A stretch of DNA of 64,000 nucleotides, from positions 248,001-312,000 of the forward strand of contig JAQGDQ010000196.1 of NCBI GenBank assembly GCA_030141605.1. The letters run 5' to 3'. The position numbers and the translations under genes were made by a program. Within the stretch, counting starts at the first letter, position 1, and every line of letters starts with the position of its first letter. The DNA is from Tubiluchus corallicola. Lineage: Eukaryota; Animalia; Priapulida. Of this stretch, positions 2,579-56,644 are shown piece after piece. Under the pieces are notes generated by a model. It saw nothing but the letters and a program-made list of their open reading frames with translations, made no database searches and had not been told where the DNA came from.

Positions 2579-4326
2579 GTTGGACTTTATGAGGACTATG
2601 GTAGAGCCTTTTTCTTCTTGTGTTTACGTCGTTCATGCACTTTCAGCTTAGGGCTACTTTATTTGAATTTACTGTCAAACAGTCAACTGATAAGACACAC
2701 ATCTGCAAGAACTGAACTGTGTTAATACAGGCTATGCTGTCTTCAGACAAGCTTTATGCCCAGTTGACTTGTGCACAAATAAACATTCTCGTTTTACAAT
2801 AACTAATTAGAAATGAAGCAGTCAAAAATACGAAACCTAATGCAATGATGTTCTTCATCAATTTCCAAAAACAAATCTAATTTGAGTCTCACATCTCTAG
2901 TCTTCAAGATCGATTTGAATCTAAATTTTTAATTCATCTAATTTTCAAAATTTGCTGAATTTGAATCTTGTTAGATGTGGAATTTGAATCATAAGAATTT
3001 CATATAAATAACAGTTTTAAACAGACTGTTCAAAAGACTGTTGAAAAAATTATGTAAAAATCATTGACATTACAATTTCTTCTGCAATGATTACTCCTGG
3101 ATGAGTTACAAAACAGTCTGACATCAATCCAAACTGAACTGTTGTCTTGAAAATTTTCTTCACTCCTAGTAGTCTTACTACAGCATCACCAGCATTTTTA
3201 TGACAGTATTTCCTAAAATCGAGCTAATAACTCATTTTTCCTATCTACATCACAAATGTGTTACTAGAATAGTGGGTTATATATTACAGTAAGTGCTCAC
3301 TTAAAGACACTAATGCATGCCAGCAAAACACGATGTTAAGGGGAACATCATTATATGAAACAATGCATTCCATAGAAAACAACGTAAAAGCTTTCAGTTG
3401 TGTTCCTCACCCAAAGTTCAATAATGCTTGGTTTAGCAAGAGCGGTCACTAAGTTGCATTGCAGGACAAAAAATCAATAATGCTTAGCTATGTAAAGCTT
3501 TCATTTGCTTTGCCCAACAAAAATCAATAGTACTTCGGCATAAATCAAACACTTCATGGATTTTATCCTTTATTACTGACAATTTTTAACTAAAAGTTAA
3601 ATTGTTAAAGTTAAAGAGAGAACTGAAGTTTGCAGTGAAAATTCAATCTTTCATGCATGCATCTTACTCTGATTGATCCCCTTATGCTATTTGTTCCTCC
3701 TTTTTTCATATCATGCATAGTCTCCATGTTTTTTCTGTTAAAGCTTTTTTTCAACACTGTAAGGCATTAGCAACACAATGTCTCACTTCTGAGCTTCGCT
3801 CTGTTTCTGGATTATTTTCTCAAAAAAATTTCAAATCCAGCACCATACCGTGTTTTAAAAGCTTCTTGCAGATGTCTAACTCTAGCCATTTTTGTTTTGC
3901 ACTCCTGAGAAGTATTTCTAGTATAGCTTTTCCAGCAACATAAATGCAAATGAGGTGAAGGTAGCTATAATTAACCAAGTAATGTAACATCAATCAGCGC
4001 TATCAATTAGCGAGTAATCAGCAAGGAGTCAACGATGCCTGCTAGGTAGGGCAAATTGTCGAATTGTACTAAGGTGGTTTCTGTTAATAGGGCTTCTCTG
4101 TGAAATGCGAGTGCAGTAACTAAAATTTCAGTGCTTGAAGGCCAAAAAATTGTCGTTAAGATGAAATGTTCGTCGTTGAGTAATAAAAGTTGTCAAAAGG
4201 TCAGCTTCGTTAAACAAAAAGTCGCTAGGTGAGGTGTCATCAGGCAAGGACTTACTGTATCTAATATTTGAAATAATTGAGAATCTGCATATTATTTGCA
4301 GAATAGTATAGTATGCTATGTTTTAG

Positions 4327-5224
4327 GTCTAGTTCTGGTGTACCAAAGGACTGGATGTCTCCCGTTATGGCAGCTATTGAAAGTGAGGAGGGTCTGTATG
4401 CATCGGGTGACTCAGGGATTGCTGAAAATGATGACTTTAATCCTGCTGAATATCGAGAAAATTTTCAAAATCGCCTACAGAATGATGATAGTCTTCTTGA
4501 CTACAGCTTGCGTAAAACATTGGGCGCAACTTCAGAGACTTCCAATAACTCAGAAACGGATATTAATGCCCGCACACCAGAAAGTACCGACCTTGGAGTT
4601 GCCTCAGATGTTGGCGCAGAAGAAGCATGGCATGATTTCGAGGATGGATTGTCAGAATCAAAGGGACCTGACTCATTTGAGATTGCTTTTCGATTACGCA
4701 ATGCTTCTATGGTGGCTTCACTACAGGAAGATCAAATTACCAAGGACATTTTGTCTTCAGGAACTGAAACTAGAGGTGCTCTAAATACTAATGAGGAAAA
4801 AGGATTTAATTGTGAAACTAGCCAAAAATTAGAGTTTGACATAAGCAATGAAGCCAGTGAGAAGGCACATTCTGGTGCAAGCCAAGAAGCGTGTGACAAA
4901 CTAGAATGTGGCATGACTGATGGAGACACGGAGAAATCACAACATGGTGTAAGTGAAAAAACTCCTTATGATGAAACCAGTAAACAATCAGGCAACGATG
5001 TGAGTAAAGAAGCCAGTGAAAAGCTTGATTATGATGTGAACAGGGAAGCCAGTGAAAAGCCTGATTGTGATGTAAGCAAAGAAGCCATTGAAGAACCTGT
5101 TCATGATGTAAGCAAAAAAGCCAGTGAAAATCCTGATATTGATGTAATCAACAAAGCCAGCAAGAAAACAAATTTTGAAGAGCTAGAACATAGTGATTCA
5201 GATTTGGAAGAAGGTTATGTGTAA
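4327..5224 (+). CDS. Putative alternative terminal exon of the PPM1H-type gene, encoding a ~300-aa acidic Ser/Glu/Asp-rich tail
   Basis: 303-aa ORF in AT-rich DNA. Acceptor ttttag|G at 4326/4327 is phase-compatible with the donor after 2574 (AA|G = Lys) and joins the ORF in frame. Confidence 0.7.
4801..5180 (+). repeat. Degenerate 36-bp (12-aa) coding tandem repeat
   Basis: Units DISNEASEKAHS, DVSKEASEKLDY, DVNREASEKPDC, DVSKEAIEEPVH, DVSKKASENPDI, DVINKASKKTNF; DNA core gatgtaagcaaagaagccagtgaaaag. Confidence 0.85.
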
Positions 5225-45624: not shown

Positions 45625-48060
45625 TGTTGCTACCATATGCAGAATATCAATTGGAAGGTGCTGCATAGGAAGAGCAAGAAAGATGGTGGAATGCTTTTGC
45701 CCCCTAGTAAGGCCTACAAAAAGGTTAAGAAGATGCATTATGAGCATTTTGTGAATTCTTACAACATCATTGAATCATGACTAACACACATTAGGGAAAC
45801 AAAGGCTGTTAAAGGGCAAGAAGAATTAATGAATTTTGCAGATGACTCGAGAATGGCCCCAGAAATACTGAATCATTGACCAGTATTAACAAAATAGAAG
45901 AAATAAATAATCAGACAAATCTTTTGTGTATATTAGAGAAACTCCCAATGTACCTTTAACCAAGACAGAAAACAGAAGCATATAAAATTAGAATAAGTCA
46001 AAAATGAAGTCCAACAGTTGACAATGTAGTGCATTTTGTTTAAGCTGCAGCTTTAGAAGCAACTGATCCAGTTTTCGGTAATTTAGGGTATGCCCAGACC
46101 AAGAAAGAAGGCCCCCAGATAGTGTTTACACGGGCAGCAAAAATTAGACTCTGGTACCCTTTTCCTTATACTCGTGGGGTACGCAATTGTTAAGATTCAG
46201 TAGCAGTGAAGAGATGGTCTTTATTCGTACATAAGAACAACGACTGGCGCATTTCACCTAACCACAGCTGTTAGGCCTGTGTCACACAGAAAAAGCCACA
46301 AAAAGCAAGCCATAATCCGTAAGGTATAAAGCGTCTTCCATCTTCCGTAAGGTGCATGTCATAATTCGCAGTATGCGCCTTGCTTTGTATAACTATGCGG
46401 GAGACACAAAACTACTATATTTTAATATAATAGGTACTATAGTTTAATAGTTAAAATAATTTTACTCATTACAGAATAACAGATTGTCAGTCGCATACGT
46501 TGTATATGCATAACATGATTGACTGGCATGCTGCCTCCTGCATGTAGTATACATTTATTATATGTATTGTAGTAATATGGCAGTAGTAATTAAGTGCTGT
46601 GGGTTAAATATGCCTTTTAATGTTTATAGTACATCGATGTTATGAATTGTTTTATACGTAATTCTTATGAAATGAATTTTGCATAGAAAAGCTTAATTAT
46701 GCAAATTTTCACATTAGTGATAAGCAAAAATTCCTTATGGCAAATGAAATTAATGGCCAAAGGCTCAAAACGGCTTGCAAAGCTCCACTAGAGACCTTGA
46801 TAACATAGTTGCCCAATTCTGGCAGGTGGAAGTGTGTGAAGATGAAACCACTATTCTGAAGAAGATATCAAGATGATTATATATATATACTAATACTAAT
46901 CTGTAATAAAACATACAGAGAATGTACAGTAATAAAATGTTGTAGGAGGATTCAGTAATTCTACCTAAGGATAATCACTACCAATTGCCAACACTATTGA
47001 CAATTGATAGTGATTATGCTTAGATAAACCCAATACCATTCTGAAGCAAGTATCCTGAGCTCCCAAAAACTTACCTGTGCTCCCTGTGGCACAGTCTAGA
47101 TTGCAGGGTCGTAAAAACAAGCTACAAAATGACTGTGGAAATCTTAAATTTGCTAAATATGGCATATGCCGAGGAAATAAATGCCAAAAGTATTAATGGC
47201 AGCCCTAGAAAGATTTGGTATTAGCCTCACTTTGCAGTTAGTAAAACAAACAAGCCAGATAAAAACAAGAATTGTGTTTAATTGTGCTGTTCAATTTGAA
47301 GGTACTACTCTCAACAGGAATGTTACGCAGGGCCCTGCTTCAGGAGTTGTGCTTAAATTTAGAAAAAACCAAATAGATTTCATGGCTGATCATGAATGCA
47401 TGTTTCACCAAGCAAAGGTACTGCAGAGGATAGTGATATACAAAGATTTTTATGATGGGAAAATGGTTGTTTAAACGCATAACCAAAAGTCTACAGAATG
47501 GCCGTACACACATTCTGTGGAATGTGGTGACCAAGTGCAGCAGCTTTTGCACTCCAGAGTACTGCAAGGGATAACAGGCATTTGTATGATGAAAATGTAT
47601 TGGAAGGCCATTAACTCCGATTTCCGATGATCCCGAGGATGCAGAACCATTGAGGCCAAATCGTCTGCTTTTGGCTCACAATCACGCTTTGCTGCCACAA
47701 GGTATTTTTTGAGACTGATCGATACAAACACAAGTGACAACGCATTCAGCTCTTAGCGACAACAACAACAACAACAAAAAATAGACTATGCCAAAGAGAA
47801 ATCTCAAAGTTAATGATGTGGTGCTTGTGAAGGAGATCAGATATCTGTAGCCACTGTGAAATATGTAACAAGCTCATGATGGCCTGAAGGAGTGAAGGAT
47901 AGATTTTTGGAGCAACCCATACAGAAGCTTTGTCTTCTGAAGGGTGCTGACAAATTGCTTGTTGAACATGTTTGTCAAAATGCTCTGGTCAAGTTTGCAT
48001 TAGAGAGGGGGAGTGTTGCTGCCATATGTAGAATAGGAAGTTGGAAAGTGCTGGCCTAGT
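45625..48060 (+). mobile_element. Old, internally deleted Bel-Pao LTR retrotransposon relic
   Basis: Similar LTR starts tgttgct(a/g)ccatatg(c/t)agaata at 45625 and 48014, the second after purine tract agagggggag. Gag remnant EINNQTNLLCILEKLP...EATDPVFGNL (~45900-46086); RT remnant KTRIVFNCAVQFEGTTLN...QGP...MADHECMFHQ (~47260-47420); integrase tail RNLKVNDVVLVKE / PIQKLCLL. Confidence 0.8.
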
Positions 48061-48233
48061 TATGAATGGACTTTGTATTTGAAAGAGACCTTTACAATGG
48101 GTAGAATAATCTTCTTACACACTGCATACCTTTCAATGTAACCATTTTGGGCTGTACTCTTGCCACTAGCATCTCTTCCTCTCACATTTCTATCTTCATC
48201 ATCCTGCCTTCCCTTGCACATTTTTACTCAGCT

Positions 48234-48540
48234 TCACTGACAGACATTGCATCTCTTGCTCTGATGGCACATATAGCTGTTACAGCTGGGCTTTAAGCAT
48301 TTGAAGCAAAGTCTTTTCTTTCTGGACAGCTCCAATCTGTCTTCTGGCTTCATGGCAGCCAAGTTTGCACATTCAGTTACGAAGTGTTCACCTATGCAGA
48401 TGCTGCATGTACTAGGTCTCTTTGACTCACCTGATATTTTGAATAAAAAATTTGTTAGGCAACTTGCTTTAGCATCTTTTCTCGCCGTGAGTTTCTGGCA
48501 TCTGTTCTTTTTCGGTCTGTATATTCTAAACTGATTTAGT
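48234..48540 (-). mobile_element. Bel-Pao Gag zinc-knuckle fragment in the opposite orientation
   Basis: Open minus-strand frame with no usable start codon: ...STCSICIGEHFVTECANLAAMKPEDRLELSRKKRLCFKCLKPSCNSYMCHQSKRCNVCQ*. Confidence 0.8.
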
Positions 48541-48993
48541 AATCATTAAATTTCAGTGATCACATGGAAACCCGAGCCAAGATATCAGATCTTACCACCA
48601 TAAGGCATCATGTGATTAAGTAAAAACATAGAAGGTATCAATAGTGACTTGTATAATTCTGAGAAAAGCACACTCAACAGTTTCAGCTGAAGAAGCCCAC
48701 TGGTCAGACTGAGACTCAATACTGTCGAGATCTATTGTGGTCGTAAACATGTCAGAATCAAATTGTGATTTGATTTTAGCATATAATTTTAACAAAGCAG
48801 GGCTCCAATAGAAAGATGCATCCTTTATCTACACACTAATATAAAGAAAAGTTGAAACATACCTCCTATTCATAAAAAAATTACTGTTAGCGTCACGAGA
48901 ACAGACTAAGACCGAGCGATTTCCTGAAATGTTTTCATTTGGGAGTTAGCAGATAGCAATATTTTTATCTACTGCTGTGTGCCACAGCCTAGG

Positions 48994-49279
48994 TGTTTTG
49001 GATATAAGCACGTGGTGCCTCCTGGTGTTTGTTTTTCCTAGTTTAGACAGGTGAGCTAGGTCAGGAAATAGGCCATTGGCCTCATTTCACAGTTAGCATA
49101 TGAAAGAAGTGAGTCACCGGTATGCGGCAAAGATGTAAGTTTCATTTCTTCACATTTCGTCATGTCATATTATTATTAATTATCATTATACCAGTTACTT
49201 AATGTTTTGACGTTGGTTTAGCAGAAAGAATTTTTAATTTTTCTTCAGCTAAAACGAAGTCGAACGCATGTCGCGTACA
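48994..49279 (+). repeat. 5' LTR
   Basis: TGTTTTGG...CGTACA; 283/286 identical to 55709-55994. Contains CACGTG (49009), TGAGTCA (49110) and an intron-like segment at 49135-49248. Confidence 0.97.
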
Positions 49280-49361
49280 GTTTTATATCTCAGTCTGTGT
49301 ACCTAGAAGAGACGGCCATATTGCTTTCGAGAACAGAACACCTGGACAAGGGTAGTACAGC

Positions 49362-51600
49362 ATGGCTTCCGGGCAAGGACGAGATTTGTTGAGACTAAAT
49401 GAAGAACAGCTTCAGCAAAAAACCGTACAAGAGTTAAGAAAGTTGCTACGGGATAAGGGATTACAAGTCGCTGGAAGCAAAGCAGAATTAGTCCAACGAG
49501 TACTGGACAGCGAGATTACTGCAGAGGTAACCACGCCTACTTCAAAGAGTGAGAGTGTTAAAACGGCTCGTGACCAATCAGGCGAGGTGGGAGTGATGCA
49601 AACGGACAACACCACGTCCAGCAGTGTGAAAACTTCTGCAACAAACTTAAGCAGGTTTGATTTGCATGCCTTGAAAATTAAAGAACAGAAACTAAAATTA
49701 CAAGCCATGGAAATCAAACATTTGAGCCTGCAAAAGGCTAGTCAGGGTTCTGCTAGTTCAGATGTGGCTTCGCCTGTAGCCAAAGAAATATCAAGTGCAG
49801 AAAAGGTCAATGAGTGGATTGAAAAGTCACACAAAGATGTCACAGAAGTCTCGTCACCTGAAGGGCTCATCAAACCCGAAGCTTACGTTACTATGGCTAC
49901 CAATGATAAATACGCCATAGGTGCTCTAGTACTGGCTTCTTCGCTATGTAATGTTGGTATTACACTTAGTTTAGCGATATTAATTACAACTGGAATTTCT
50001 AAACCCATAATGACGCAGATAAGCGCCACCTTTGATCACGTGGAGCTTGTGGAAGCTATTGACAGTTCACATGTAAAAAGTCTACAATTACTAGGACGGC
50101 CCGAATTAAAGGTGACTTTTACAAAACTGCATTGTTGGAGGCTAACTCAGTTCTCAAAATTTGATTTTTGGATTCTGATGTAATTGTCCTGCAAAACATA
50201 GATGATTTATTTAGCTGGAACGAACTGTCAGCAGTTGCAGATATTGGCTGGCCTGATTGTTTTAATAGCGGACTTTTCGTTTTTGAACCTAATCTTAGCA
50301 CGTACAGTGAATTGAGGTCATTCGCTCAGTCAGATTCAAGCACATTCGACGGTGGAGAGCAAGGTCTACTAAACCAGTATTTTAAAGCCTGGAATACAGC
50401 TTTTGATAAACGATTGCCATACAGGTATAATGTAGCAGTAAAGCAGTTTCGAGAAAGTGTCAAGGTTGCTCATTTCATGGGTCCTAGTAAGCCCTGGGAC
50501 AGTATACGCAGCATTTATCACAAGCAAGTGGCGCCAGCTACAGGTAAAACAGACTTTGAATCTGAAATGTTAAATATTTGGTGGTCACTTTACATTCATG
50601 AGGTCGAACCAAACTGGCCTCATGAATTAGAACTAATAAATAAAGCTAATGTTCAGCAGCACATTCCTACCCGAACAAAACTCAGTCCTGATGCACCTGA
50701 ATTTGCCACTCGCTTACATGACAGGAGCAGTGTTCATAGAAAATTATACACATGATGACGGGGCGAGATATACCAGGCTTTTACAATTTTGCACGGGCGA
50801 AGCAAAACGGGTTGTCGAAAGTTGCAGTTATATGGACCCGCAGATCGCATACAGTCATGCTAAGCAAATGCTTATTGAACGTTTCGGGTCACCCTTTATT
50901 GTAACACAAGCGTGGTTGGCTAAAATAAATGAGTTTGCAGTCATAAAAATAATGAAAAGGAAAAACTCAGGGAATTTTCTGACTTGATGATTGGTTGTGT
51001 AGAGACATTAAAGGCCATGGACAATTTAGCCGAAATAAATACACAAACAAGTTTGCTTCAAGTCATTAAGAAACTCCCATTCCGTTTGCAAGACAAATGG
51101 AGAGACGTTGTTACCAAGTTAAATAAACATGATGGCAGAAATCCTACAATTTACGACGTGGTGGGATTTGTCAAAGAGGCGACTGAAAAAATAAACCATC
51201 CCGTGTTTGGTGACCTTGCAACCGGTGGTCAAATGAACATTACAAAACGCAAGAATAAATTAGCAACTAGGAATTTCGCATGCACTACCTTTCGAACAAG
51301 AAGTTCATCCAGAGAAGAAAAATCGAGTCAAACAGGCGGAACGCCAAAGGATAGAAAATTAAGCAGTAGAGATGTCAGAAAATGTGTTCTGCAACTCAGC
51401 CGAGCATGTTTCTCTAAAAAACTGTGAACAGTTTAAAGACAAGTCGGAAGAAGAGAGACTACAGTTTGCTCGGAAAAGTCGCTTATGTTTTAACTGCTTA
51501 CAGAAAGGGAACCAAAGAGCTGGAAGCTGTTACAAACCAGGCTGTACAAGACAGGGATGCAGAAGAAAACATTCTGCTCTGCTTCATGACGCTCTGGAGA
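49362..51600 (+). pseudogene. Bel-Pao Gag region (SAP domain, coiled coil, glycogenin domain, DUF1759-like capsid region, three Zn knuckles), frameshifted
   Basis: SAP at 49410-49508 (LQQKTVQELRKLLRDKGLQVAGSKAELVQRVLD); RYTRLLQFCTGEAKRVVESC...LIERFG; KKLPFRLQDKW...HPVFG; knuckles CNSAEHVSLKNC, CFNCLQKG...C, CTRQGCRRKHSALLH. Frame breaks near 50163, 50720, 50950 and 51385. Confidence 0.9.
49878..50611 (+). pseudogene. Captured intronless glycogenin-like glycosyltransferase (GT8) domain; a 1-nt frameshift at ~50163 in this copy
   Basis: EAYVTMATNDKYAIGALVLASSL...LLGRPELKVTFTKLHCWRLTQFSK / FLDSDVIVLQNIDDLF...DIGWPDCFNSGLFVFEP...FDGGEQGLLNQYF...LPYRYN...KVAHFMGPSKPW...LNIWW is colinear with animal glycogenin (AFVTLTTND, RPELGVTLTKLHCW, MDAD, GWPDCFNSG, FDGGDQG, VVHFLGRVKPW). 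Confidence 0.95.
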
Positions 51601-54443
51601 AGTGGGCTCCTTCCAATGGCGAGAGGTCAACAAATGTTGAAGCAACAAGTTGCGCTGTCACTACAACCAAACTGTCAACAAGGGCTGTGCTCCCCATCAC
51701 TCCTGTAAAGGTACAGGTGCAAGGCGGACGTCCAATTCAGACAATGGCTTTGTTGGACCCAGGATCAACTAATACGTTCTGTTCCAAGGCCATATATGAT
51801 GAGCTGGGAGCTGTTGGCAAGAAACAAGTCGTGTCACTGACTACAATTGAAAAGAAGCATTCAAAAATACATACTTCTGTGACCAAGATGTACGTCAGTA
51901 AGTTGGATGGATCAAACAAAATGAAACTTCCCTTTGTCTTTGTCAGGCCATCTTTGATGTTGGATGTGACTGACTATTTGGTAGACGAACAAGACATTAG
52001 TAACTGGCCTCATCTCAAAGATGTTCCTTTGACGCTAGCTGATTCACGTGAACTGCAGCTCGGGTTAATTATAGGACAAGACGTCTCTGATGCATTAATG
52101 CCTTTAGAAACACGCTGTGGGCCAAGAGGAGTTCCGTATGCAACAAGGACTAGACTTGGATGGACATTAAATGGCCTGATAGGAGGCGGCAATGAGGACA
52201 CTAAAAAGCTGTCAAACAACCTTCTTCAGGCAGAACAGGTTACCAGCCAGCGACAAGTCGAAAAATTTTGGAAAATGGACGCTGTTGACGATAGCATACA
52301 GTACTCCCATGACGATAAGTTGGCGCTGAGCATTTGGGAGAAGTCCATCACCAAAAGAAATGGTCACTACGAATTGGAGATACCTTTTAAGTCTAATGAT
52401 GACAACATTCCTGACAGTTTTCAAATGGCTTCAAAGAGGTTGGCAAGCCTTCGCTGTAGACTCAGCAAGAATAAGTTGTTGCATGAAAAATACTCCCAAG
52501 CCATGGCTGATCTGCTCCAAAAGGGATACGCAGAAGAAGTTGTTGAACATGATACGAATGTTGCAACATGGTACTTGTCACATTTTCCAGTTTTTAATGA
52601 GAACAAACCCGAAAAAACTAGGATCGTATTTGATTGTTCGGCAACAGAAGACGCAGTCTCTCTCAACATGTTGGCACTACAAGGTCCAGATCTGACTAAT
52701 AAATTGCTTGGTGTCCTGCTATGCTTTAGAAAGTATCCAGTAGTAATCATGGCTGATGTTCGTGAGATGTTTCACCAGGTGTACGTAGCACCGAAGAATA
52801 GGGACATGTTGAGATTTCTCTGGTGGAATGATGGAAACCTAGATGCGCCACCCTCCATATTTCGAATGACAGTCCACCTTTTTGGCGGTGTGTGGTCGCC
52901 CAGCGTAGCTTCATTTGCTCTCCAACAGACAGCTAGAGATAACGTCAACTGTTTTGATGAGCATGCATTAAATACGGTGGTACATAGCTTCTATGTCGAC
53001 GACCCCTTTAAATCTGTGGAAACTGCAAAAGAACCAATCGATTTGATGTCAAAATTAATACAGATTCTAGACACTGGAGGTTTCCACTTGACCAAATGGA
53101 TGAGTAACGACAGAGACGTATTAGCATGTGTGCCAATTGAAGAACGAGGAAAGAACATTAAGAATCTTGATCTAACCCAGGACGATCTACCAAATGAACG
53201 AGCCTTAGGGGTTAAATGGGATGTCAAAAGCGATATACTTGGCATTCAGGTTAAGCTGCGAGAAAAGCCAAGCACCAAGCGGGGACTACTTAGGTCATTA
53301 GCAAGCACCTATGATCCCCTAGGCATGGTCTCGCCTTTCATTTTACAAGCGAAAAGACTGTTTCAGAACGAATGCCGGATCCAGGAAAAATCATGGGATG
53401 ATAGACTGGAAGAAGAGACTGAGAAAAGTTGGGATAAATGGAAATCTGATTGTCCTGCACTAGAATACTTTACGCTAGACAGATGCCTGAAGCCAAGAGA
53501 TTTTGGAAGAATTGCTGACTTGCAGCTGCATCACTTCAGCGATGCATCCCAGTATGCTTACGGCACTGTAACTTATGCACGGATGGAAAATGCTGATGGA
53601 GTTGTACACACAGCATTTGTAATGGCAAAGTCTAGGCTAGCACCTATGAAAAGCCTAACCATACCACGCCTTGAGTTGTGCACAGCAGTATTAGCCTCAA
53701 CTGTCGACAAACAACTGAGAAGAGAATTGTCCATACCCATCAGCGAGTTCGTGTTTTGGTGTGACAGCACTATAGTGCTTCAATACATACGCAACACCAC
53801 AAGACGTTTCCATACTTTCGTGCAAAATAGAGTGACTACCATACTAGAAACTTCGTCGCCAGTTCAGTGGCATTATATCAGTACCGCAGATAATCCAGCT
53901 GATGACGTATCCCGAGGAATGGACGCCAATGCCTTAGTAAAATCTCAGCGTTGGAAATATGGTCCTAGTTTTCTGCGAAAAGCCCAACATGAATGGCCGC
54001 AGCATGATCCGAGCAAAGAAAATGATGAACTTAACGACGATAAAGAAGTCAAGCAGACGACATGTTCCACTACTGTAAAACACATACAGGATAGAAACGA
54101 CACAATTAGCAAGCACATTGAACATTTTTCGTCATTTTACAACCTCAAGAAAGCAGCAGCTTGGATTCTTCGTCTGAAGGACATTTTGCAAAAGAAGATC
54201 AGAGGAGAAAAACCTGAAGTACCTCCAAAGTTAACAGTGCAAGAGCTGACAAGAGCTCAAGATGCATTAGTAAAATTCGTTCGGACTCAGAACTTTGGCA
54301 TGGAATATAAGGCGCTTACACAAAAATCTGCTAAATTGATGCGCATCCCTAAATCAAGCAGGCTACGAAAACTTGATCCGTTCATTTGCGAGAAGGGTTT
54401 GCTACGTGTTGGTGGACGACTGAAGGCGCCAGGCACCCTATGA
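51372..54443 (+). CDS. Bel-Pao polyprotein segment: Zn knuckles, aspartic protease, reverse transcriptase, RNase H
   Basis: ALLDPGSTNTF; KTRIVFDCSA...QGPDL...MADVREMFHQ...HLFGGVWSPS...FYVDD; LHHFSDASQYAYG, TIPRLEL, WCDS, NPADDVSRG; GLLRVGGRL. Confidence 0.95.
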   Translation: MSENVFCNSAEHVSLKNCEQFKDKSEEERLQFARKSRLCFNCLQKGNQRAGSCYKPGCTRQGCRRKHSALLHDALEKWAPSNGERSTNVEATSCAVTTTKLSTRAVLPITPVKVQVQGGRPIQTMALLDPGSTNTFCSKAIYDELGAVGKKQVVSLTTIEKKHSKIHTSVTKMYVSKLDGSNKMKLPFVFVRPSLMLDVTDYLVDEQDISNWPHLKDVPLTLADSRELQLGLIIGQDVSDALMPLETRCGPRGVPYATRTRLGWTLNGLIGGGNEDTKKLSNNLLQAEQVTSQRQVEKFWKMDAVDDSIQYSHDDKLALSIWEKSITKRNGHYELEIPFKSNDDNIPDSFQMASKRLASLRCRLSKNKLLHEKYSQAMADLLQKGYAEEVVEHDTNVATWYLSHFPVFNENKPEKTRIVFDCSATEDAVSLNMLALQGPDLTNKLLGVLLCFRKYPVVIMADVREMFHQVYVAPKNRDMLRFLWWNDGNLDAPPSIFRMTVHLFGGVWSPSVASFALQQTARDNVNCFDEHALNTVVHSFYVDDPFKSVETAKEPIDLMSKLIQILDTGGFHLTKWMSNDRDVLACVPIEERGKNIKNLDLTQDDLPNERALGVKWDVKSDILGIQVKLREKPSTKRGLLRSLASTYDPLGMVSPFILQAKRLFQNECRIQEKSWDDRLEEETEKSWDKWKSDCPALEYFTLDRCLKPRDFGRIADLQLHHFSDASQYAYGTVTYARMENADGVVHTAFVMAKSRLAPMKSLTIPRLELCTAVLASTVDKQLRRELSIPISEFVFWCDSTIVLQYIRNTTRRFHTFVQNRVTTILETSSPVQWHYISTADNPADDVSRGMDANALVKSQRWKYGPSFLRKAQHEWPQHDPSKENDELNDDKEVKQTTCSTTVKHIQDRNDTISKHIEHFSSFYNLKKAAAWILRLKDILQKKIRGEKPEVPPKLTVQELTRAQDALVKFVRTQNFGMEYKALTQKSAKLMRIPKSSRLRKLDPFICEKGLLRVGGRLKAPGTL

Positions 54444-55563
54444 TATTACCGAGAAAGCATAAGCTGTCAGAGCTAATCATTCGTCATTACCACGAAACGA
54501 ACGGCCACATTGGCAGGGAACATGTCATAGCTTTAGTAAGAAATGAATTTCGGATAATTCATGCAAGAGCCTTGGCACGCAAAGTCCTGTACGAATGCCG
54601 ACATTGCAGGCTTCGCAAGCCATCTTTCCTTGATCAAAAGATGGCAGATTTGCCTATTGACAGACTACAGCCATCAGACGCTTTTACCACTATTGGCATT
54701 GATTGTTTTGGCCCGATACAGACCAAGAGAGGTCGCTCACACATTAAACGCTATGGAGTCATCTTTACATGCCTAGCTACACGCAGTATTCACTTGGAAG
54801 TCCTATTTGACATGTCCACTGATTCGGTTATAAAGGCGATTAACAGATTTTGCTGCCGCCGAAGGAAGCCAGACAAAATCAGGTCAGATTGTGGGACTAA
54901 TTTTGTAGGAGCAAGCAGAGAGCTGAGAAAGTCTATAGCCGAGTGGAACAATGACGTCATACATTCAGAGCTTCTTCAGCGGCAAATAGAATGGCAATTC
55001 AACCCACCAAGAGCCCCACACATGGAAGGTGTTTGGGAGTCTCTCATTAAGAGTGTGAAGAAGATTCTCTTTCCAACGAACAAACCTTGGATGATGAAGG
55101 CTTGGCAACCCTGTTTTGTATAGTTGAAAATATAGTTAATAGCAGACCGCTAACTACAGTTTCTGACGATGTTGACGACTTCAATCCGTTGACTCCGAAT
55201 CACTTTCTTCAGATCAGCGCAGTTCCAAACCTGCCTTTGGGAAAGTTTTGTCAGGCAGATCTCTTTCGACGAAAGTGGAGACAAATACAGTATCTCTCGG
55301 ATATCTTTTGGCGCAGATGGTTGACTGAATATTTGCCCACTCTACAGACTCGAAGCAAATGGAACAAGGAGCAGAAGAATGTTGAAATAGGAGACATCGT
55401 ATTAGTTCTGGATGAGACACCAAGGAATCACTGGATGCTAGGACGGATCATTGAAGCACGGAAAAGCAGTGATGGACTAGTGAGAAGTGTGATGTTGAAG
55501 ACTAGAGATGGGACTCTAAAACGACCAATTCATAAAATAAGTTTAATCGAATGTAACAATTAG
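54430..55563 (+). pseudogene. Bel-Pao integrase (HHCC, DDE core, DUF5641-like tail), split by a frameshift at ~55075
   Basis: HPMILP, HETNGH...CRHC, GIDCFGP, RSDCGTNFVG, GVWESL, VNSRPL, FWRRWLTEYLPTLQTRSKW, RPIHKI. Confidence 0.93.
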
Positions 55564-55708
55564 TTGATTTTGTTAAGCATTCATAAACTGTATGTTTAAG
55601 TTAAACTTTGAAGTAGATGTATGTCAATTTAGTCAGTCATGATATGTTATTACACTGTTGGTTTCCTTTAATTTTGTAAATGCTGCAGGAGAGCATTTAA
55701 GGAGGCAG

Positions 55709-55994
55709 TGTTTTGGATATAAGCACGTGGTGCCTCCTGGTGTTTGTTTTTCCTAGTTTAGACAGGTGAGCTAGGTCAGGAAATAGGCCATTGGCCTCAT
55801 TTCACAGTTAGCATATGAAATAAGTGAGTCACCGGTATGCGGCAAAGATGTAAGTTTCATTTCTTCACATTTCGTCATGTCATATTATTATTAATTATCA
55901 TTATACCAGTTACTTAATGTTTTGACGTTGGTTTAGCAGAAAGAATTTTTAATTTTTCTTCAGATAAAACGAAGTCGAACGCATGTCGTGTACA
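55709..55994 (+). repeat. 3' LTR, preceded by a polypurine-tract-like aaggaggcag
   Basis: Direct repeat of the 5' LTR, followed by TSD CTAGG. Confidence 0.97.
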
Positions 55995-56644
55995 CTAGGT
56001 AATAGGAATGCTTCAGAAAAAAGAACCAAACTGTAAACACTGAAAAGTTAAAAAGAGCTTCAGATGAATTTTTTCAATGTGCGCCATTTTACAGTGTCTG
56101 TGTGGGCCAGTAAGTGGCGTACTCTACCGGCGTTGTTTTGTAACTTTTGATTTTCTTTCGAAACGCGGCACAAATAGCAAAGAAGGGTTGCAGTTTATAC
56201 AATGAAAATTGGAACATACGATACTTTGAGGCTTCATACTGTACAAAAAATATGACTGTATGAAGAAGAAAGCCAATGTTCTAGCACATTAAGTGCTTGT
56301 TAAGAACAATAATTTTCTTGCTTGTAGTCCTTCGTTGTTTTGAATACATGACTTTTTGTATCATGCAACTTTGAAGGTTTTTGACTTTCCAGCAGATTTC
56401 ACTTTAAAGATGTTTTCACGTGTCAGCTCCAAGATGCGTAAAGATTAGGAAACTTGAAACTTTGAAGCCCTGTACATTTCCTTGAGTACTGTTTCTTTCA
56501 GTTGCTCAGCACATATATACACTCACATACTGACTGACCTTACTGACTAACCAGCTAACTAGCTATGATTTACTTAGTGTCGGTTAGTTATTTAATTAGT
56601 TAGTGTTGGTCTAGCTAAGCTAATCAGAGAGTCAATCAATTAGT

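Follow-up and report, generated by a model that had tools for sequence, protein, structure and literature searches.

A glycogenin-derived GT8 domain lacking the acceptor arm lies within the Gag of a BEL/Pao retrotransposon of Tubiluchus corallicola

The DNA analysed here (the window) comprised 64,000 nucleotides from the priapulid Tubiluchus corallicola (GenBank assembly GCA_030141605.1, contig JAQGDQ010000196.1, positions 248,001 to 312,000, forward strand), and all coordinates refer to this window. It contains a 7001-bp BEL/Pao retrotransposon in which a GT8 domain of glycogenin descent is placed within Gag (Table 1). The long terminal repeats (LTRs; 286 bp, TG...CA) align gap-free with 3 differences in 286 positions (99% identical), and the element is flanked by a 5-bp target-site duplication (TSD), CTAGG. 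Pfam models were matched in the order SAP, GT8, Peptidase_A17, reverse transcriptase (RT), integrase and DUF5641; the Pao-type models were PF05380 (E 1.2e-47), PF18701 (E 2.4e-30), PF17921 and PF00665. The nearest polyproteins (best 120 of 747 Pol matches) were of BEL/Pao type and 39–46% identical; sources named among the matches listed were echinoderms, nemerteans, cnidarians, a crustacean, a mollusc and fish. The layout agrees with the ICTV profile of the Belpaoviridae, which gives LTRs of 0.2–1.2 kb, a genome of 4.2–10 kb, a target-site duplication and a tRNA-Arg or -Gly primer (PMC8742986). The sequence following the 5' LTR (49280–49310) is without the usual leading TGG of a tRNA primer-binding site; a purine-rich tract is present.

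The glycogenin match (49878–50608) is collinear over 731 nt, contains no inserts and covers the whole catalytic domain. On the left it shares the frame of the gag start that bears SAP, and on the right that of the Gag motif LSPDAPEF. In the three SAP-bearing relatives inspected (P0086, P0101 and P0119) the same place is taken by a low-complexity linker. A preliminary description of the locus, made from the letters alone, had called the glycogenin captured, in keeping with this position inside a BEL/Pao element. No second glycogenin piece was found elsewhere in the window by tblastn. Codon composition of the domain and the rest of the element did not differ (chi-square p 0.24) and was uninformative.

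The segment 50345–50497 (+) is read in a single frame from FDGGEQG through KPW. Among PDB sequences searched with phmmer, the open reading frame (ORF) matched rabbit glycogenin-1 (1LL2) with E 2.9e-36, 19 glycogenin sequences in all (E 3e-36 to 3e-33) and Gat1 (6MW5) with E 4.5e-15. In the phmmer alignment with 1LL2, from which residue numbers were counted with Met1 included, a 10-residue gap lies between L189 and A200; residues 190–199, including Tyr195 and Tyr197, are without counterpart. A GAG codon for Glu stands at rabbit Asp163. The same two changes, an in-frame loss of about 10 residues with Tyr195 and an Asp-to-Glu exchange, had been proposed in the preliminary description, and the alignment reproduced both. 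Exon skipping or a frame slip as the cause of the gap was ruled out by the single frame and by the alignment of both flanks.

For comparison, 359 glycogenin-like sequences were used, a redundant set gathered entirely by likeness to the query. In the profile alignment, Tyr occupies the acceptor column in 321 of the 324 sequences that span the loop, and the loop is missing in one. The DGGDQG motif is covered by 337 of the 359, with Asp in 335 and Glu in 2. Both changes are thus rare among cellular proteins.

The few exceptions were inspected individually. P0020 (Acanthocheilonema viteae) lacks 15 residues over the acceptor loop, likely a gene-model error because P0346 from the same species has the loop. 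P0221 and P0291 have a loop of full length without Tyr in the acceptor column, and P0291 contains two GT8-like regions within 1134 aa. Glu at the Asp163 position occurs in the arthropod glycogenin-like sequences P0064 (Nymphon striatum) and P0299 (Strigamia maritima), both with the Tyr loop intact; in P0299, Gln164 is in addition replaced by His. Relative to animal glycogenins, the element's domain carries two further in-frame single-codon indels, one residue extra before FDGG (50336–50344) and one fewer before the arm (50390–50410).

The remainder of the catalytic machinery is retained. Metal and donor residues are intact, and the GT-A/GT8 hallmarks DxD, C-terminal His and KPW are present. 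Kept residues are T11, N12, Y15, R77, T83, K86, D102/D104, D125, W128, N133, S134, D160, Q164, N188, H212, G215, K218 and W220. The C-terminal ORF alone scored 38.2 bits with PF01501 (gathering cut-off 24.3). A profile built from 91 glycogen-synthase-binding tails (of 201 full-domain proteins) detected no tail when the window was searched in six frames (best E 3.5). Because three defining features of glycogenin fail (acceptor Tyr195, Asp163 and the glycogen-synthase-binding tail), the element carries, despite its glycogenin descent, a glycogenin-derived GT8 domain and not a glycogenin.

In a tree of 109 domains (rows remaining after thinning at 72% identity), the element's domain was placed within a clade of animal glycogenins (supports 0.98 and 0.93) as sister to P0001/P0003 (support 0.89). 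Its terminal branch, 0.76 substitutions per site, is the sixth longest of the 109. Identity to animal glycogenins is 47–56%, and 56% is the best to any cellular protein. Differences from the four near sequences fall on 55–67 of 81 variable columns and on only 5–6 of 59 conserved columns. Compared in 15-residue windows, the domain is least like cellular sequences over a portion of the lid, on either side of the arm and in the segment that follows KPW; the available part of PMC12267440 names these regions as modulators of activity. An AlphaFold model of half the domain (mean pLDDT 86.6) closes over the gap, with flanking blocks at pLDDT 90 and 80, and superimposes on GYG1 (3T7N) with a TM score of 0.87. 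Origin from Gat1 was ruled out by the tree, by the weaker PDB match (E 4.5e-15 against 2.9e-36) and by rank 41 in the fold search. A viral origin was ruled out by the placement among animal glycogenins and by 14–22% identity to viral GT8 proteins.

The age of the changes was assessed by comparison with the LTR clock. Column statistics were calculated on 238 rows, leaving out 121 of the 359 as partial or duplicate sequences. At the 46 most conserved domain columns the clock predicts 0.54 changes (upper bound 1.6), and 4 are seen, all conservative and each present in some cellular glycogenin. At a conservation of at least 90%, the domain departs at 6 of 59 columns with no radical change, compared with 25 radical changes in 344 columns of Gag-Pol. 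Glu is the sole substitute at Asp163 in cellular sequences (2/337). The arm deletion is in frame and removes the acceptor arm alone; a random 10-codon deletion would take the Tyr at 10 of 2072 element positions (0.5%), or at 10 of about 255 if confined to the domain. All 2072 codons are free of in-frame stops, whereas a neutral origin of the Gag-Pol excess would have produced 4.4–8.4.

The region 49362–55560 as a whole combines six frameshifts and many missense changes at conserved columns with an absence of stops, and has changed beyond what the 99% LTR identity predicts. Divergence without stops may point to open frames kept in a helper-dependent lineage, to homogenised LTRs or to minor errors in the assembly.

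The reading we favour, tentatively and with a probability of about 0.4, is that the changes arose before this insertion and are the signature of a sugar transferase tethered to Gag that would be re-aimed at another acceptor. The likelihoods attached to this and the other readings were judged rather than computed. For animal LTR elements, the Pao element BATUMI among them, template switching to a co-packaged mRNA has been shown (Tan et al. 2016, PMC5131818, available part). Since the domain is without introns and this mechanism is known, an animal glycogenin mRNA was probably captured by template switching during reverse transcription. Most changes in the domain, with Glu and the loop loss among them, would then have arisen before the present insertion while the fold was still under selection. 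From the biochemistry of GYG1, the domain should be unable to prime glycogen on itself or to recruit glycogen synthase: self-priming would be lost because the acceptor Tyr195 is gone (Y195F blocks autoglucosylation in human GYG1; PMC12267440, available part) and synthase docking because the tail is absent. Speculatively, Mn2+ and a UDP-sugar may still be bound and a nearby protein glycosylated in trans, through a groove opened where the arm is missing. Judged from the domain's position, the acceptor would most simply be Gag itself or a host protein encountered as particles assemble. In a more specific version, which is doubtful, the family lost both the arm used for self-priming and the synthase tail, and selection has maintained the remodelled enzyme in Gag as a means of glycosylating the element's own particles or a protein of host defence; the domain would then be preserved better than pol.

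The effect of the Glu was considered by analogy. We take Asp163 to be the first place of the xED motif of the GT-A fold and the counterpart of Asp188 of LgtC. Glu at this site is presumably also present in galactinol synthases, which a literature search did not confirm. The xED motif has been described (PMC7185993, available part), and LgtC Asp188 binds the donor sugar (PMC13128908, available part). By this analogy Glu would likely shift or weaken donor binding, and the favoured reading supposes, speculatively, that binding is altered rather than abolished. Structures of rabbit Asp162 mutants (1ZDF and 1ZCU) were among the fold-search matches, and such mutants reportedly have lowered activity. 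Glycogenin mutants with Tyr replaced by Phe reportedly trans-glucosylate.

Several observations weigh against a re-aimed transferase. The copy is dead, with six frame changes (near 50160, at 50705–50735, and near 50945, 51385, 54420 and 55066), the first of which splits the glycogenin domain just before DxD. It also takes large deletions: a second one, of at least about 38 codons, lies about 250 nt downstream of the arm loss, and the distance from LSPDAPEF to the next capsid helix is 30 codons here and at least 68 in the 43 relatives in which both motifs were recognised. Gag-Pol departs at 23 of 256 columns conserved at 95% or more in 119 relatives (9.0%; P0085, a chimera-like sequence of 3399 aa, excluded from the counts). 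By leave-one-out the relatives' own rate has a median of 1.1% and a maximum of 6.5%; the copy exceeds all 119, and it is also among the most distant sequences in the set (mean identity 45%). The domain departs at the same rate as Gag-Pol (4/46 versus 23/256, Fisher p 1.0). Because Gag-Pol likewise exceeds the LTR clock (3 changes expected, upper bound 8.7), the lineage looks degenerate before insertion, and "before insertion" therefore need not mean "under selection". The contrast in radical changes is post hoc and depends on the threshold, with p 0.035 at 90%, 0.085 at 95% and 0.13–0.22 at 80, 85 and 97%; 2 radical changes appear among the domain's 76 columns at 85%. Recent capture out of an unsampled host would likewise be expected to give a long branch and a conserved core. 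The structural model covers half of the domain, and its input alignment consisted wholly of loop-bearing rows, making it weak and not independent evidence. Glu at a 99–100% conserved Asp163 may simply cripple the enzyme, and the acceptor is a guess, none having been identified.

A single copy is at hand, the searches found no family relative, and nothing shows fixation of either change, which also counts against the favoured reading. No GT8 domain was detected in the best 120 of 747 Pol relatives (polyproteins of 1792–5000 aa; best E 1.3), and no BEL profile matched in the best 150 of 1837 GT8 matches (HMMER, 1.84 billion representatives). Homologs of the C-terminal ORF (best identity over most of the query 50%) yielded no family copy among longer proteins (68 of 319 candidates matched) or those of similar length (72 of 93). 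Among metagenome contigs, 115 relatives were found and 80 kept, none with Pol, many of these contigs being 1–2 kb and too short to show it. Viral contigs gave no match to the element's domain, and the top match in the ESM Atlas was an ordinary glycogenin cluster, with no family copy. A literature search, with most subscription journals and repeat databases outside its scope, found no glycogenin or glycosyltransferase in an LTR element in the portions of texts available. The available part of a BEL/Pao survey (PMC3118150) has no word that begins with "glyco"; env is the captured gene it names. Glycogenin capture in an LTR retrotransposon is unusual and apparently unreported.

The preliminary description had suggested repurposing toward another acceptor, a role as sugar-nucleotide-binding or dominant-negative partner of host glycogenin, or decay specific to this copy. 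Its implication that self-priming is lost stands, by the missing Tyr and the Y195F precedent. Repurposing is slightly favoured because the deletion keeps the frame and affects the arm alone, the changes at the most conserved columns are conservative, and the amount of change lies above the LTR clock. Decay is nearly as likely, because the copy is dead, the second large deletion lies close by and Gag-Pol departs at the same rate. On such a reading the domain would be a passenger that now lacks any function and whose two changes were never functional, Glu being a point change and the loop loss a template-switch or repair deletion, incurred in a degenerate helper-dependent lineage or in this copy; we consider this quite possible, at somewhat less than even odds. 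It fits the six frameshifts with one in the domain itself, a rate of departure above that of every intact relative, the single base needed for Asp to Glu, and the failure of the protein, metagenome and viral searches to return a second copy. LTR-mediated retrocopies, moreover, are often non-autonomous, and 14 of 21 older ones carry loss-of-function changes (PMC5131818, available part). Damage alone would however have had to fall in frame and exactly on the acceptor arm, to leave conservative residues seen in cellular proteins at all departing columns of at least 90% conservation, and to introduce none of the stops expected under neutrality.

Other explanations were judged less probable. Had the captured host paralog or transcript form already been without the loop or with Glu, the changes would reflect evolution of the host and not adaptation of the element. 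The two arthropod paralogs with Glu, an unsampled host and a best cellular identity of 56% are compatible with this, which nevertheless appears improbable: no true cellular sequence among 324 is without the loop, and both Glu paralogs keep the loop Tyr. Alternatively, an inactive domain could act as a decoy, dimerising with the host's glycogenin and interfering with the priming of glycogen, or could do no more than bind UDP-sugar. The partner-facing D125-W128-N133 and D160 are kept, Gat1 forms the same dimer without self-glycosylation (10.1101/764241, available part), and non-glycosylated GYG2 suppresses glycogen synthase (PMC12267440, available part). The dominant-negative idea is weakened by the deletion of Tyr197, a residue in contact with D160 and W128 across the dimer (PMC12267440, available part), and by the absence of the synthase-binding tail, the route by which GYG2 acts; the domain is furthermore tied into Gag, and we hold a decoy to be distinctly unlikely. 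An assembly or sequencing error in the gap or the Glu codon is the least probable explanation. Several frameshifts lie at or near short single-base runs and small assembly errors are possible, but a clean 30-base in-frame loss is atypical of base-calling errors, the window contains no N and the LTRs align gap-free.

Compared with glycogenin-1 (GYG1, EC 2.4.1.186, CAZy GT8; 1LL2, 3T7N), the domain shares the whole catalytic domain with DxD, His, KPW, D160 and Q164, and differs in lacking residues 190–199 and the tail, in Glu at 163, in its place within Gag and in being split by a frameshift. The element resembles other BEL/Pao elements (Belpaoviridae, Semotivirus) in its size of 7.0 kb, LTRs, 5-bp TSD, Peptidase_A17, DUF5641 and the order Gag, protease (PR), RT, RNase H (RH) and integrase (IN), and departs from them in the glycosyltransferase in Gag, found in none of the best 120 of 747 polyproteins. 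As extra gene of BEL/Pao elements, env alone is mentioned in PMC8742986 and the available part of PMC3118150. The locus is a case of LTR-mediated capture, a kind of event already known. LTR-mediated retrocopies (PMC5131818, available part) likewise place an intron-less host coding sequence on the sense strand of an LTR element; there the retrocopy replaced internal element ORFs, whereas here it is fused in frame in gag, pol is present alongside at full length, and the divergence from any known cellular source is large. Gat1, the Skp1 alpha-galactosyltransferase of Toxoplasma/Pythium (6MW5), is a glycogenin homolog that does not autoglycosylate, galactosylates Skp1 and forms the same dimer (10.1101/764241, available part). 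It offers a functional model of a glycogenin-like GT8 enzyme acting on another protein, but it is a cellular gene with shown activity and matches the domain's structure at only 28% identity (E 4.3e-8, compared with 1.7e-13 for GYG1; rank 41 in the fold search), and the tree places the element's domain with animal glycogenins. A GT8-like fold is also carried by viruses, in GT8 proteins of the mimivirus p13-like type and others; they are free-standing genes of large DNA viruses with 14–22% identity and represent an unrelated capture.

Outside the element, older fragmentary BEL/Pao remnants were located upstream, at 45694–47951 (+) and 48072–48518 (-), with capsid, RT, C-terminal and zinc-knuckle pieces about 25–55% identical to relatives. 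They showed no DNA similarity to the main element and contained no glycogenin piece. An open frame of 305 codons at 4307–5224 (+), acidic, rich in Ser/Glu, with short imperfect repeats and without Pfam match, is probably a host exon. A Pfam scan of 60 of the 347 ORFs of at least 45 codons outside the element gave no match.

Table 1. Features of the BEL/Pao element and its GT8 domain, in window coordinates.
Feature	Position	Strand	Basis
Target-site duplication, left copy CTAGG	48989..48993	+	Flank comparison
5' LTR, 286 bp, TG...CA	48994..49279	+	3 differences from 3' LTR
Gag N-terminal region: SAP (49410-49508), short coiled-coil-like stretch, low-complexity linker	49362..49877	+	PF02037 E 7.9e-9; order as in P0086, P0101, P0119
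Glycogenin domain, N-terminal part: nucleotide-binding strand and helix, lid, RPEL...TKL; no introns	49878..50159	+	tblastn of P0001/P0002, 48-60% identity
Frameshift within glycogenin domain, just before DxD	50160..50165	+	Frame comparison
Glycogenin domain, C-terminal part, to last helix	50165..50608	+	PF01501 E 1.5e-9; PDB E 2.9e-36; TM 0.87 to 3T7N
DxD motif (C-terminal part)	50171..50179	+	
WPDCFNSG motif (C-terminal part)	50249..50272	+	
FDGGEQG motif (C-terminal part)	50345..50365	+	
Glu codon at Asp163 position	50357..50359	+	1LL2 alignment
Junction of in-frame 190-199 loss (acceptor arm, Tyr195, Tyr197)	50432..50437	+	Alignment
HxxGxxKPW motif (C-terminal part)	50471..50497	+	
LSPDAPEF Gag motif, upstream of capsid in relatives, in frame with glycogenin C-terminal part	50681..50704	+	
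Frameshifting loss of at least about 38 codons, including capsid-start F-x-G-x-P	50705..50735	+	Motif in 117/120 relatives; absent in three + frames here
Remaining capsid (DUF1759-like region), two frames	50733..51388	+	Profile map
Zinc knuckles, aspartic protease (51753-51767), reverse transcriptase (YVDD 52989-53003), RNase H (Peptidase_A17 model)	51384..54428	+	
Integrase (H2C2, rve) and DUF5641, two further frames	54419..55563	+	Pfam, profile map
Purine-rich tract preceding 3' LTR	55699..55708	+	
3' LTR	55709..55994	+	LTR comparison
Target-site duplication, right copy CTAGG	55995..55999	+	Flank comparison

Gene capture by LTR elements is known, and the captured pieces are mostly passengers. 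If the changes reflect decay only, the locus would still be an unusual capture, but both lesions would be without meaning. If the favoured reading holds, a sugar-metabolism enzyme carried in frame in Gag and re-tooled there would represent a new class of retroelement accessory function, and would raise cytoplasmic glycosylation in particle assembly or host evasion as a question. Whatever the element's history, the trimmed domain provides a natural design for a long-standing question about glycogenin, whether an arm-less Glu163 core still transfers glucose in trans.

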